A stretch of 64,000 nt of DNA, from NCBI GenBank assembly GCA_046346885.1, contig JAXMHI010000001.1, forward strand, positions 291,390-355,389, given 5' to 3'. Positions within the stretch are counted from its first letter, which is position 1; the number at the start of each line of letters is the position of its first letter. The notes below the pieces were generated by a model. That model made no database searches, had not been told where the DNA came from, and worked only from the letters and a program-made list of their open reading frames with translations. Below, one piece after another: positions 12,736 to 62,741 of this stretch. A program made the position numbers and the translations under genes. Source of the stretch: a bacterium (lineage in GTDB: Bacteria; UBA10199; JADFYH01).

Positions 12736-12759
12736 TCGGTAACGAAAATAAGAAGTTGC
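12736..12759 (-). promoter_or_regulatory. Family promoter-like motif upstream of the ACC-like gene
   Basis: Minus strand GCAACTT-CTTATTTTCGTT-ACCGA; 15 nt between CAACT and CGA. Confidence 0.65.
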
Positions 12760-12843
12760 TTGCTAAAATGAAGGATAAAAAAAGGAAAGAAAGATTTGTC
12801 TGTAATTTTTTATTACGGACTGTAATATTTATTTTGATGAGGT

Positions 12844-15800
12844 GTGATTTTGAGACGGATCAAAAATTATAATTTGTTACATCCGGTGGCTGAAGGGAGC
12901 CATGGAGTTCTTTATCGTGCCGAAAAAGAAGGGCTTCCCTATGCGGTGAAGGTTTTTAAGTCGGGGGCCCCCCTTCTTGTTTTAGAAGAAGCAAAAGTCC
13001 TTTCCCAGTTTTCACATCCCAATATCGTTCGCTATGTGGAACAGGGGAACGACAAGAAAATTTCTTTTTTAGTGACGGAATGGGTGGAAGGGAAAGCTTT
13101 AGAAACTTTTCCGCCTTCCCCCGATTTTCCTTTCCTCTTAAGAGTTACCCTCGACCTCTTAAAAGGCCTCCATGCTCTTCATCGGAAGGGTTGGGTTCAT
13201 GGGGATTTGAAAGGCGCCAATGTCTTGATCACAGCCAAAGGAGCCAAGCTCATCGATTTGGGGCTTTCCCGTTCATCCCTCCCGGAGAAGGCCCAATACG
13301 CTTCAGGTACCTTGGCGACGCTCGCTCCCGAGCTGTTTTTCGGGCAACCCCCCCGGCGCACGAGCGATTTTTATTCTCTGGGAATCGTTCTCTACCGTTG
13401 GGTGACCGGGCGTTATCCTTTTCCTTCCTCTTCCGTTTCCGAGGTGATTCGCTGGCACCTTTTTGAGACGCCTTCTTTTCCTGTGGAAGATCACGGAGAG
13501 GTTCCTCCCGAATTCGCTGATTTCATTTTGCGCCTCCTCTCGAAAAATCCGTCGGACCGTCACCAAAGTGTCGGAGAGATTTTCGAATGGCTGCGGGAAC
13601 GTTTCAATCTTCAGGATCCGGAGACCTTCGAGCTGGCGGCGGGTATGGAGGCCGAAGAAGGTTTCGAGCTTCATGGAGAAGCGATCCTCTACTACGAAAA
13701 CAAGGCCGATCTGAAACCCGAAGAGCGACTCATCTTGGCCGAGCTGCATTATCAACAGGGGCACTTGCCCCGGGCCCTGAAGGTGCTGGAGACGCTTTGC
13801 AACCCCCGAGCCCTGCTATTGAGGGCGAAAATCTTAACCCGTCAAGGGGAGTTCACTGAGGCGGAAGGATTGCTGGAGAAGGTTGGTCCCCTCGCGGGAG
13901 ATTTCAGCGTGGCGGAAAATATCGCCTACCTCAACGCCCAAGGCGTGCTCCGGTTTTATCAAGAGCGAACCCAAGAAGCCCTGGAGCGGTTTTCGGAGGC
14001 GGAAGTGTTGTCGCGGCAATCGGGCGAGCTGACGCCGCTCGCGGTTGCCTATAACAACCTGGCCAACGGGATTTTGGCGAAGGGGGAGAAGGAACTCGCC
14101 GAAGAATACTTTCTGCGCTCCATCGAACTCGCCCGCAAGGCGGGAGACCGCATTCACGAAGGCATGTTCCAGATGAGCCTCGGGTTTTACTTTCACCAAG
14201 TGGGGCGTTTCGGCGAGGCGCTTTCCGCCTATGGGGAAAGCCTCCGCATTTTAGAGAAGGTGGGCCAAAAAAGTGAGAAGGCTCGAACCTTGCTTAATCG
14301 GGCAAACCTTATGCTGAAATTGGGCGGTTTGGAGGAGGCGGAGACCGATCTCAAGATCGCTCAAGAGATTTTCAAGGCCCGTTCTTTGGATTATCTTTAC
14401 GCCTACAGCCTTCTCATCGAGGGTGAGATTTTCCAGAAAAGGAAGCAATGGAGAGAAGCCCGCGATTGTTTCGAGGAAGCCGAGCGACGCCTTTCTTCGC
14501 TCGGCCGCAAAATCGACGTGGGATATGCCCGGCTCCACCGCATCGAAATTTGCCTGGAGGCGGGAGACAAAGAATCAGCCATGCATTCGCTCTTTTTTCT
14601 TCCCGAACAGGGAGGGTTTTCCTCCAATGGGCTGGAAGGGCATTTCCACTTGCTGGAAGCGCGCATTCTTATCGCATTCGGCGAAGATCCCGACGGAGTA
14701 GAACGAAAACTGCACGAGTCGAAGCTTTATTTCGAAAAAATGGAGGAAGAAGAGGCTCTTCCCTTTCTTCACCAAGTCTGGGGCTCTTTTCTCTTAAGCC
14801 GCCGCCGCAATTTGGCCGCCTTAGAGCATTTTCAAGAAGCGAAAAACCGTTTGGAAGGGAATTTAAAAAGAATACCTCCGGAGTGGAAAGAGCGTTATCG
14901 CGCCGGCAGCCTTCTCCGGGAACTGGAAGAAGAGACGCGCCGAGCCGAAATGGATCCATCCGTAGAGGAAGGGAGAGAACCGATGAAAGAAGCCGCCATC
15001 TATTCTTTGGAAGAGTCGAAGCTGGCCTTAGGCTTTAAAAGCCTTTTCGAGAAGGAGGTGATGAAGCTTCTCGAAGACCTGGTGGGAGAGCTCGATTTGA
15101 ATTCGCTTGTCGATAAAATTCTCGACCGAACGATTCAACTCACCGAGGCGGAGCGTGGATTCATCCTCCTAAATGAGCACAATATACCACGTGTCGCCGC
15201 TTCGAGGAATTTAGACCAAGAGACCTTGAAAGATACGAAGGGGCAGATCAGCCATTCGATCGCGACCGAAGTGCTCAAGACCGGCGAGGCGATCCTTACG
15301 GTGGACGCTTTGGTGGACGAGCGTTTCTCCATTACCGCCTCCGTCCACCAACTCAAGCTGCGTTCCATCTTGTGCCTCCCCTTTACGAAGGATCAGAAAG
15401 TATTGGGGGCCCTCTATCTGGATAATCGGGAAAAGCCGGGCATTTTTCACCCGAGCCTCTCCCATGCCTTGAAGCCTTTTACCGATTTGATTGCCCAGGT
15501 CATTGATAACGCCCATCGTTTCTTGAAAGTGGAATCCGACCTGAAAAATACGCGCAAGAAACTCGAGGCGGCGCAGGCGGAGTTGAAGGGAAAGTACGAC
15601 TACCACAACATCGTCGGCCGTCATCCCCGCATCCTCGAACTTTTCAAGGTGCTCGACCGGGTGACCGACGTGGAAGTTCCGGTCCTCATTATAGGGGAAA
15701 GCGGCGTGGGAAAGGAACTCGTCGCGAAGGCGATCCATTTCAATGGGGAGCGCTCTTCGCGCAATTTCGTTTCCATCAATTGTAAGGGAGTCCACGAGGA

Positions 15801-60851: not shown

Positions 60852-62660
60852 TTAATAAACGCGCAGCGTATCCCCGCCGGAAGGGGGCGGAGCGTGCTGA
60901 ATCAGCGGTTGTCCGCTCTCGCCGGAGTTGCGGCGGACCCTCTTTTTGGGCGGGGGAGGAGGGATGCCCTCCACGTTCAAGTTCTCCGGGTTCGGATTGG
61001 CCACCAAGGTTCGCGAGCTCGCCCTTAAGGGCAACTCGAGGCGTTGAAGATCGGAAGTGCCGGGTGTGTAGACGGCTTCTAAGGGGAGATATCCCGGTTT
61101 CATCAAGCGGATGCGATGGGCTTGGTTGAGGGGTAAGTTGTCCACGATGGCCGGCGTTTTGAGGCCCGTCGGTTGATCGTTGAGGTAGATCTCCGCCCCG
61201 TCGGGGGTACTTACCACCAGGGCTTGCCCTTTCGTCGCTGCGACGGGAACAGCCGGTTGTGAGGCCGGTTGTGAAGCGGGTTGCGATGTCGGCATTGAGG
61301 TAGGGGCGGCCGCCATCGTCTCGGGGGCGGGCTGAGTAGAAGGTTGCGACGCCGGTTGCGTGGTCGTGAGCGCTGCGGTCGGCTGCGATTCGGGCGTCGG
61401 CACCGGCGGCGTGACGGGCGGGGGCGGCGCCACGGGGGGCGCAGGAGGGGTGGGGACCGCCACGGGTACAGGCGGCGTCGGTTCCACTTTCAACCGAGCC
61501 TGCATCTTTGGTTGAATCACCTTCACCCACGCGTAATACCCCAAGCCTAAAACCGAGATGAAAAAGATAAAGACGAAAGTTAAGATCCAAATCCACGCGG
61601 AAGATTTCTTTTTTTCGACCCCCGATTGAGTCGATTTGAATCCCGGGATGTAGGAAATCGAGGTTTCGGCCGTTTGCGAAACCTTGGGCGGTTGCACGGC
61701 GGTGCCGAAGGCCGGCGCGGGTTGGCTTTCCGAAGCGCTGCCCGTTTTGTAGCCTTGCATGTATTGGCTTAAATCTTTCGGGAGGAAACCGGGGTGAATT
61801 TGCGCCAAGGCCTGGGCCAAGTCGGTCTGCATGAGGTCCGCCGAAGCGTAGCGTTCGGCCAGCGGGGCCGAGAGAGCCTTGAGGAGGATGTTCTTGAGCG
61901 AGTCGGGGATGTCGGAGGGTAGGTCTTCCCGTTTCACTTCCGCCGTGCGGATTTTGTCGAGGATGACGATTTCCGAGTCTCCGTCGAAGCATTTCTTGCC
62001 GGTGAGCATCTCGTAGAGCACGAGCCCTAGCGAGAATAGGTCGCTTTGGGGGGTGAGCGGTTCGCTGCGTACTTGTTCGGGCGACATGTAGGCGTATTTG
62101 CCCTTGAGCATTCCCGTCGAGGTGAAGCTTTTTTTCATCGCCGCCTTCGCGATGCCGAAATCGGTGATTTTTACGTCGCCGTTGAGCGAGAGCAAAATAT
62201 TATGGGGTGAGATGTCGCGGTGGATAATGCCCAAAGGAGTGCCGTCCGGTCCCGTTTTTTTGTGGGCATAATCGAGACCCGCGGCCACTTGCATGATGAT
62301 GAAGCTGGCCACGTCGGGGGGAATCTTCTGCCCCTTTTCATGAACGCGCCCCATGAGGGTTTTAAGGTCGAAACCTTCCACCCACTCCATCGCGATGAAG
62401 TAATCGTTTTCCACCGAGCCCAAATCGAAGACGCCCACGATGTTGGCGTGATTGAGGAGGACGGAGAGTTTCGCCTCGTCGATGAGCATGCGGACGAATT
62501 CGGGATCGGCCGCCCAATGGGAGAGCACTTTCTTGATGACGACGATCTTTTCGAAACCGTCCACGCCGAAGGTCTTGGCCTTGTAAATTTCCGCCATGCC
62601 GCCGGTCGCGATCTTTTCTAAAAGGAAATATTTTCCGAAGGGTCGGGGAGAAGCTTCCAT
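60852..62660 (-). CDS. Membrane Ser/Thr protein kinase with PEGA domain
   Basis: IATGGMAEIY, HRDISPHN, DFGIAK, GKYAYMSPEQ; one TM helix; (S/T)QP repeats; PEGA-like STPDGAEIYLND..TP. Confidence 0.93.
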   Translation of the reverse strand: MEASPRPFGKYFLLEKIATGGMAEIYKAKTFGVDGFEKIVVIKKVLSHWAADPEFVRMLIDEAKLSVLLNHANIVGVFDLGSVENDYFIAMEWVEGFDLKTLMGRVHEKGQKIPPDVASFIIMQVAAGLDYAHKKTGPDGTPLGIIHRDISPHNILLSLNGDVKITDFGIAKAAMKKSFTSTGMLKGKYAYMSPEQVRSEPLTPQSDLFSLGLVLYEMLTGKKCFDGDSEIVILDKIRTAEVKREDLPSDIPDSLKNILLKALSAPLAERYASADLMQTDLAQALAQIHPGFLPKDLSQYMQGYKTGSASESQPAPAFGTAVQPPKVSQTAETSISYIPGFKSTQSGVEKKKSSAWIWILTFVFIFFISVLGLGYYAWVKVIQPKMQARLKVEPTPPVPVAVPTPPAPPVAPPPPVTPPVPTPESQPTAALTTTQPASQPSTQPAPETMAAAPTSMPTSQPASQPASQPAVPVAATKGQALVVSTPDGAEIYLNDQPTGLKTPAIVDNLPLNQAHRIRLMKPGYLPLEAVYTPGTSDLQRLELPLRASSRTLVANPNPENLNVEGIPPPPPKKRVRRNSGESGQPLIQHAPPPSGGDTLRVY

Positions 62661-62717
62661 AGGGCCGCTACTTTACCCCAGCTGGGGCGGATTGCAAGGT
62701 GAACCTGCAAGAAAATC

Positions 62718-62741
62718 GCAACTTTTCAAGGCAGTTACCGA
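62718..62741 (+). promoter_or_regulatory. Family promoter-like motif
   Basis: GCAACTT-TTCAAGGCAGTT-ACCGA; matches the 12736 copy including GTTACCGA. Confidence 0.65.

Follow-up and report, generated by a model that had tools for sequence, protein, structure and literature searches.

A putative sigma-28-type promoter with a GCAAC -35 box, found before most members of a protein family and many unrelated genes of a bacterial genome

The stretch of DNA considered in this study, referred to throughout as the window, comprises 64,000 nucleotides (nt) of a bacterial genome, G000 (C1:291390-355389), whose 2.76-Mb assembly in 25 contigs is 82% complete. Contigs of this source genome are designated C1, C9, C10, C12, C22 and C24, and its relatives G001 to G015 and the like. 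Four genes of the window (5145-12659, 55769-57301, 62799 to past the window's end, and one split into the frames 55192-55557 and 48270-55187) have in common an N-terminal domain of about 215 amino acids (aa), and I will call the genes that carry this domain the family. The subject of the study is a bipartite motif, CAAC(T/C)T followed at a fixed distance by CGA, which an earlier note on this DNA had placed before these genes and before a DAGK-like gene and had taken for an alternative-sigma promoter, with a -35 box like that of extracytoplasmic-function (ECF) sigma factors and a -10 box like that of sigma-28. The six sites then put forward are all present, and a seventh exact match, at 1868-1891 (-), had been missed.

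Four sites in the window can be named with confidence (the scores in bits are those of a position weight matrix, PWM, described below). The first (12733-12758, minus strand, aGCAACTTcttattttcgttaCCGAAcaa, exact core 12736-12759, 22.6 bits) precedes a family gene of 2504 aa (5145-12659, minus strand), whose N-terminal domain, at about residues 6-227, scores 402 bits with a hidden Markov model (HMM) of the domain and is followed by acetyl-CoA-carboxylase-like cargo (Pfam CPSase_L_D2, Biotin_carb_N and ACC_central). The second (62719-62744, plus strand, cGCAACTTttcaaggcagttaCCGAGctt, exact core 62718-62741, 18.8 bits) precedes a family gene recognized by blastp and HMM matches, which begins at 62799 (plus strand), runs past the end of the window at 64000 and encodes 1174 aa within the contig. 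The third (57329-57354, minus strand, aACAACTTttaacgcggcctgtCGAAgcc, exact core 57332-57355, 14.5 bits) lies before a family gene of 510 aa (55769-57301, minus strand, start ATG at 57301), again found by blastp and the HMM. The fourth is the site that had been overlooked (1865-1890, minus strand, cACAACCTtcctttcgaaaacTCGATAgta, 19.0 bits); the gene behind it (1011-1721, minus strand) encodes 236 aa with no Pfam match. All sites in the window are directed towards their downstream gene and, as had been claimed, stand in coding orientation before the starts, with CGA 30-103 nt ahead of the refined start codons at 12659, 57301, 57503, 62799 and 55557. The sequence GTTACCGA is indeed common to two sites, yet it is no general feature of the motif.

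The site before the DAGK-like gene (57377-57402, plus strand, GCAACCTcgggagggggagagCGATAAg, exact core 57376-57399) is weaker. Both of its cores are exact, and its low score of 7.0 bits arises because the T-tract is missing and the spacer is rich in G. Outside coding sequence, no other match with an exact core has a low score; chance alone would produce about one. The gene itself (57503-60247, plus strand, 914 aa, Pfam DAGK_cat at 19 bits, below the cut-off) is not a member of the family and has orthologues in 8 of 20 relatives. Since the orthologues in G005, G001 and G007 keep the motif at the same place (11.2, 24.0 and 28.2 bits, respectively), I regard the site as genuine, if weak. Two of these genomes, G001 and G007, have no family genes at all. 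In the region 57329-57402, two sigma-28-type promoters stand back-to-back, divergently serving the 510-aa gene and the DAGK-like gene, with their -35 boxes about 22 base pairs (bp) apart.

A further site (55621-55646, minus strand, core 55624-55647, 14.4 bits) has a perfect -35 box (cGCAACTTTTT) and CAA in place of the invariant CGA. It precedes the family member (48270-55557, minus strand) that is split into frames of 121 aa and 2305 aa, the former corresponding by blastp to about residues 9-76 of the N-terminal domain and the latter matching from about residue 89. The split is due either to a frameshift or to faulty assembly. Elsewhere in the genome FlhA (C12:235678-237667), FliP (C12:255071-255630) and ArgJ (C12:234836-235530) are likewise split, which suggests assembly indel errors rather than true pseudogenes, and therefore a sequence error is as likely as decay to account for the CAA.

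To place these sites in context, upstream regions were taken throughout the genome from a rough gene call (2129 genes, covering 82.5% of the genome), which also serves to divide coding from non-coding DNA. The motif is present far beyond chance. CAACYT-Nk-CGA has 166 matches at k=14, as compared to 19-97 at other values of k; GCAACTT-N14-CGA has 46, as compared to 1-14 at other spacings, and CAACTT-N14-CGA(T/A)A has 43, as compared to 1-11. The k=14 matches fall outside coding sequence in 108 of 166 cases, and 79 lie at most 200 nt upstream of a gene on the same strand, as compared to 0-5 for each of five control spacers and 14 for k=16. The PWM was built by zero-or-one-site-per-sequence expectation-maximization (EM) on 1496 upstream regions, iteration with a fixed threshold having been dropped because it drifted towards low-complexity sequence. 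EM converged on about 130 sites (some 9% of the regions), with the consensus c(G/A)CAAC(T/C)TTTy-N10-gCCGA(T/A)AA, which may also be written c(G/A)CAAC(T/C)TTT-N11-gCCGA(T/A)AA. C20, G21 and A22 of the matrix each have a frequency of at least 0.97, and g18, C19, T/A23, A24 and A25 are preferred. The scores of upstream regions are bimodal, with 120 regions at 14 bits or more and just 9 between 11 and 14. At a threshold of at least 16 bits the genome has 151 sites, as compared to 23-47 for matrices whose spacer deviates by 1-3 nt, and by both the spacing scan and the altered matrices the optimum is a single nucleotide wide. This strict spacing, an orientation that is strictly that of the gene, and a location 25-216 nt before the start codon bear out the idea of an alternative-sigma promoter.

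The HMM of the N-terminal domain finds 83 open reading frames (ORFs) in G000 that have the start of the domain, and 68 of them have a site of at least 14 bits about 30-200 nt upstream of it. In terms of called genes, the motif precedes 59 of the 76 family members, as compared to 70 of the 2053 genes outside the family (odds ratio 98, p 9e-63). The claim that every family member is preceded by a site thus stands for most of them but not for about one fifth, which lack one; in five such cases the gene immediately ahead is itself a family member. One family member, C10:7225-10329, behind a site of 24.5 bits, carries sigma-70-like cargo, with a Sigma70_r2 match of 22 bits and sequence resembling regions 3 and 4.

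Used genome-wide, as had been proposed, the motif does recover further members. There are 135 non-coding sites of at least 16 bits with an ORF downstream, 62 of them before family genes and 73 before others. The predicted regulon has about 135 promoters, nearly half of them belonging to the family and the remainder to lineage-specific proteins, the DAGK-like gene included. Most of the non-family targets have no Pfam match (12 of the top 20), and a few have TPR, beta-helix, LamG, OmpA, CarD or DUF4215 matches. By a crude test on N-termini, which underlies all the signal-peptide counts given here, no signal peptide is found among the 62 family proteins. The description of the motif as defining an effector regulon is apt in its strong tie to the family and too narrow otherwise, for 73 of the 135 sites precede unrelated genes and the motif is enriched in a whole class of genomes, as described below, most of which lack the family. 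The label "effector" itself would presume that the family proteins are substrates of a secretion apparatus, a role they may have.

The two sets of promoters are not quite alike in their -10 boxes. Position 23 is T in 25 of 62 family sites and in 64 of 73 non-family sites (p 6e-9), and position 18 differs as well, the family promoters being sub-consensus (aCCGAA) and the others close to GCCGATAA. CGATAA occurs in 37 of the 73 non-family sites and the full octamer in 12. In the window, the comparison is between 12733-58, 57329-54 and 62719-44 (family) and 1865-90, 57377-402 and 5111-37 (non-family).

The register of the promoter may be set by comparison with the fliC promoter of Pseudomonas aeruginosa, which reads (-36)TCTAAAG(-30) and (-15)GCCGATAA(-8), and in which A(-11) is flipped out in the open complex (PMC12784957). 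With the invariant A of CGA set at -11, CAAC falls at -33 to -30, with A's at -32/-31 as in TAAAG. By this alignment to sigma-28 open complexes, gCCGA(T/A)AA is an extended -10 element from -15 to -8, with C-G-A at -13, -12 and -11, and (G/A)CAAC(T/C)TTT is a -35 element from -34 to -26. The geometry is that of sigma-28, CAACYTT-N11-GCCGATAA as compared to TAAAGTTT-N11-GCCGATAA, and the sigma-28-like nature ascribed to the -10 box is confirmed, gCCGATAA being the sigma-28 signature. If the register of the fliC promoter, where the octamer occupies -15 to -8, holds here, transcription should start 8 nt past the last A of the -10 box. The predicted starts are then near 12725 (-), which would give a 5' untranslated region of about 66 nt, 62752 (+), 57321 (-), 57410 (+), 55613 (-) and 1857 (-).

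Which sigma factor might read such a promoter? G000 has ten matches to Sigma70_r2: RpoD, an RpoD-like protein, RpoH, five ECF-type factors, the family member mentioned above, and one FliA/WhiG-like sigma of 262 aa (C12:246987-247775), the single sigma of its kind in the genome. The best NCBIfam matches of this last are WhiG and FliA_WhiG (140 bits), and its closest relatives in PDB are WhiG (6pfj) and FliA (9wsf, 6pmi, 1rp3). Its gene lies inside a cluster for type III export that encodes FlhA, a YscD-like FHA protein, YscJ/FliF, a FliG-like protein, FliH, an ATPase, FliJ/YscO, FliM/N, FliP and FliR. It stands between the YscJ/FliF-like gene and the genes for FliG, FliH, ATPase, FliJ, FliM, FliP and FliR, and the cluster continues with an FHA-type sigma-54 activator and a PEGA Ser/Thr kinase. 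There is one FHIPEP gene in G000. In the 82%-complete assembly, no flagellin (Flagellin_N), rod (Flg_bb_rod) or hook genes were found, nor was there a match to FlgM in a Pfam search. A putative sigma-54-type promoter, TGGCAT-N5-CTGCA, lies 63 nt upstream of the sigma gene, and the motif itself precedes none of the sigma genes of G000. Two small ORFs flank the sigma gene, one after it (C12:247807-248298, 163 aa) and one before (C12:245850-246350, 166 aa), and both keep their positions throughout the class, with 24-51% identity. The 163-aa ORF has no Pfam match, and the 166-aa ORF has none in its first 50 residues, the part scanned. They are candidates for a partner, an anti-sigma factor or small parts of the export apparatus.

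The residues of the candidate sigma appear to suit the motif. In P. aeruginosa FliA, R80 and D87 contact -12G and -13C, and Q228 reads the -35 box, its loss cutting -35-dependent transcription (PMC12784957). Aligned with that protein (9wsf, whose chain numbering is that of the paper plus 5), the candidate keeps R80 and D87 as R94 and D101, while Y76 is replaced by Phe and Q228, in region 4.2, by Arg235. The recognition segments F(K/R)TF(A/S)YYR(I/V)KGAI(Y/F)DGLR(K/R) and LSKSWT(S/C)RLH(A/S)R(A/S) show hardly any variation among 37 orthologues, which overall are 52-86% identical, and no orthologue that can be read at these positions departs from R94, D101 or R235. A -10 box and its residues that are both kept, together with a -35 box and its residue that are both altered, are what one would expect if the candidate sigma reads the motif apart from flagellar promoters. 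The GCAAC box and Arg235 probably serve to keep the regulon separate from the promoters of flagellar FliA.

A comparison was made with 41 sampled genomes of the class, using CAACYT-N14-CGAWA as the core pattern and, as controls, the reversed pattern and a spacer of N17. Every one of the 41 has the sigma-28-like protein (57-86% identity) and FHIPEP, and in every one the core motif is enriched, with 13-90 matches per genome as compared to 0-13 for the reversed pattern and 0-11 for N17. Most of these genomes lack the N-terminal-domain family, which ranges over this genus, a genus designated g6 (41-68 copies), another designated g4 (8-13 copies) and, marginally, one other genome. Since the motif is class-wide and the family is found in few genera, the promoter type is the older of the two, and the family was recruited to it later. 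In g4 and g6, the motif (at least 14 bits) precedes 18 of 21 family genes. G011, which is 97% complete and has 86 core matches, has just RpoD and the sigma-28-like protein as its sigma-70-family genes, and G015, where the motif is strongly enriched, has three such genes, none of ECF size. I found no published description of the secretion system of these relatives. In two of them, G001 and G002, a second FHIPEP gene is adjoined by a second, canonical FliA with SRVSQ in region 4.2 (G001:C1:26487-27167, L157, and G002:C25:51816-52517, L156), so that two sigma-28 paralogues coexist in some genomes of the class.

The explanation I favor, with a probability of roughly 85%, is that the motif is a promoter read by RNA polymerase carrying the single FliA/WhiG-like, that is sigma-28-family, sigma of G000. 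By analogy to flagellar class 3 genes, the sigma encoded in the cluster would turn on the "late" products of a secretion-like apparatus, its own gene lying behind the putative sigma-54-type promoter. The regulon would then take in the cargoes of the window: the acetyl-CoA-carboxylase-like protein, the 510-aa and 1174-aa proteins and the split 2305-aa protein.

Several observations weigh against this explanation. The candidate sigma scores 139.7 bits, below the curated cut-off of 189.6 for FliA_WhiG. The -35 core is (G/A)CAAC rather than TAAA(G), the part in common being the two central A's. The core structural genes near the sigma gene, those resembling a type III secretion system (T3SS), are mostly without the motif, their best sites scoring 17.0 and 12.4 bits. 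Signal peptides of the Sec type are found in 27% of the non-family targets, as compared to a background of 22% (p 0.38), and the regulon is therefore not simply the secretome of the T3SS. The assignment of this sigma to this motif would depend on their co-occurrence and on the logic of the residues. Finally, the difference between family and non-family -10 boxes could betray a second reader, or it may reflect graded promoter strength.

A second reader is the premise of the alternative that fares best, although I judge it improbable: sites with GCCGATAA would be read by the sigma of the cluster, and family-type aCCGAA sites by, or with, a second sigma, for which the family protein of C10:7225-10329 is a candidate. 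The differences at positions 23 and 18 speak for it, as do the Sigma70_r2-like region of that protein and the strong site before its gene. Set against these, the two groups do not differ in -35 box, spacing or invariant CGA, the family sites of relatives are split about evenly between A and T, and a -10 box somewhat off the consensus is more simply understood as marking the weaker or tuned promoters of one sigma.

The proposal that the motif belongs to an ECF sigma, with AAC as the -35 box, CG as the -10 box and about 16 nt between them, has some superficial appeal. The layout AAC...CGT is that of the consensus for SigW, SigX and SigM, the arrangement AAC-N16-CGA resembles it, and five ECF-type sigmas are available in G000. 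The -10 box, however, extends to gCCGATAA, the sigma-28 signature; none of the five ECF genes has an upstream score above 3.1 bits, so that the usual autoregulation of ECF factors is absent; and the motif is strongly enriched in G011 and G015, which have no sigma-70-family gene of ECF size. On the strength of the sigma sets of these two genomes, and the lack of the motif before the sigma genes of G000, the ECF half of the original proposal is excluded for practical purposes and I give it very little credence.

It is just as hard to maintain that the motif is the binding site of a transcription factor, or else the housekeeping promoter of this lineage, notwithstanding that bipartite boxes could form an operator and that about 9% of upstream regions have the motif. 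Against an operator, the motif lacks symmetry and runs strictly in the direction of the gene; the gap of 11 nt between its boxes is that of sigma-28 promoters, and its distance from the start codons is one to be expected of a promoter. As for housekeeping, tRNA genes lack the motif (2.7 bits at most) and a separate peak of TTGAC-N17/18-TANNNT marks ordinary sigma-70 promoters, and for these two reasons the motif is not the housekeeping promoter. Least credible of all is the notion that the link between family and motif is one of shared descent, in which duplication copied the upstream regions with no co-regulation: the paralogous expansion is indeed large (83 ORFs) and a few promoters share extra sequence (e.g. 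GTAACCGAnAGGTTAC), but the upstream regions of the family are just 26% identical outside the two boxes, the level of random sequence, with 1 of 1891 pairs above 60%, so the link is not left over from duplicated sequence, and moreover the boxes persist in genera g4 and g6, whose genomes have 41-47% G+C, as compared to 54% in G000, and the same motif precedes 73 unrelated genes.

The favored explanation, a promoter for the sigma-28-family factor of the cluster, invites comparison with three known systems. Class 3 flagellar promoters recognized by sigma-28 (FliA/SigD/WhiG), TAAAG(TTT)-N11-GCCGATAA, share with the motif the -10 element with its invariant C-G-A, the distance between boxes and the T-tract after the -35 core, and the candidate sigma, whose best matches are WhiG and FliA, would likewise be of group 3; it keeps the equivalents of P. 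aeruginosa R80 and D87, and its gene lies among those for type III export. The systems differ in the -35 box ((G/A)CAAC instead of TAAAG), in the Arg that replaces the equivalent of Q228, in the position of the sigma below its curated cut-off and in the lack here of flagellin, rod and FlgM, the secreted anti-sigma of flagellar systems. Furthermore, the targets are not genes for filament, motor or chemotaxis but some 135 genes that chiefly encode either members of the one N-terminal-domain family or proteins that Pfam does not recognize.

HrpL of Pseudomonas syringae and Erwinia, an ECF sigma whose expression is driven by HrpR/HrpS and sigma-54, recognizes the hrp box GGAACC-N15/16-CCACNNA. The analogy to it is functional: a type III secretion cluster that itself contains, or lies close to, the gene for an alternative sigma, and a promoter box by which scattered, putatively secretion-related genes can be listed. 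The putative sigma-54-type promoter before the sigma gene and the FHA-type sigma-54 activator in the cluster may point to a similar mode of control. In contrast to HrpL, the candidate considered here is a sigma-28-like factor of group 3, the box is a different one, the apparatus resembles a flagellum (FliG, FliM, FliH) rather than a classical injectisome, and secretion of the targets is putative. In Chlamydia, too, a sigma-28-family factor has been kept along with type III secretion but without a flagellum, and drives "late" genes. Chromatin immunoprecipitation with sequencing in Chlamydia trachomatis found just two targets of sigma-28, hctB and tsp (PMC12282069), a far cry from the approximately 135 promoters predicted here, which include those of a family of 83 paralogues.

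A broader picture can be sketched, which I offer as tentative and consider possible rather than probable. A non-flagellar, flagellum-derived machine akin to type III secretion would, throughout the UBA10199-type class, keep the logic of late genes, with a re-tuned sigma-28 paralogue, in which Arg has replaced the Gln that reads the -35 box and which recognizes GCAAC instead of TAAAG, switching on its cargo, which in some genera would amount to 40-80 proteins per genome headed by the domain of about 215 aa as a module for export or targeting. If this were so, the promoter box would be a list, readable from the genome, of a new secretome, with whole enzymes among its members, the acetyl-CoA-carboxylase-like giant for one. 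Short of that, the box allows the regulon of this uncultured lineage to be listed from sequence alone, whichever genome of the class is taken, much as effectors of Pseudomonas were found with the hrp box. Should most of the 83 paralogues be wired to the sigma of the cluster, then the proposition that these proteins belong to that machine becomes directly testable. If one alteration to the -35 box and another to region 4.2 suffice to set a sigma-28 paralogue apart from flagellar promoters, this would also be a compact case of the evolution of sigma specificity.

A few features of the window and the genome remain. A gene of 526 aa (3465-5045, minus strand, no Pfam match) lies 99 nt downstream of the 2504-aa family gene and has been credited with a variant of the motif with 13-nt spacing. 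That variant is present (ACAACTC...GTTACGATAA at 5111-5135, minus strand; caCAACAACTCcccttttgttaCGATAAtc at 5111-5137), but as read it falls in no enriched class of spacing: with the spacer shortened by 2 nt it scores 18.7 bits, a spacing with no genome-wide excess in the PWM scan, and it may be better read from an overlapping CAAC with the spacer lengthened by 1 nt (17.3 bits), a spacing that has a modest excess. The gene may instead be co-transcribed with that at 5145-12659. Its product has a single homologue among 5.8 billion proteins, on a contig (ENA ERZ27276473) that keeps the order of giant acetyl-CoA-carboxylase-like gene, 526-aa gene and FolB (window 3050-5045, minus strand).

Divergent from the 2504-aa family gene is one (12844-16578, plus strand) that encodes a fusion of 1244 aa combining Ser/Thr kinase, TPR, GAF and sigma-54 activator. 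Inside its coding region, at 13103-13127 (plus strand), there is a match to the motif of 21.2 bits with a spacer one nucleotide short, which is probably due to chance.

Elsewhere in the genome, a 16-bp palindrome, GTAACY-N4-RGTTAC, occurs in 7 copies, as compared to about 0.7 expected (C9:46587, C10:42882, C22:11632, C22:67807, C24:35726 and also C22:11686 and C24:30997). In five cases it lies across the -10 box of a sigma-28-type promoter, e.g. GTAACCGATAGGTTAC, and the palindrome looks like the operator of a dimeric regulator acting over a subset of the regulon.

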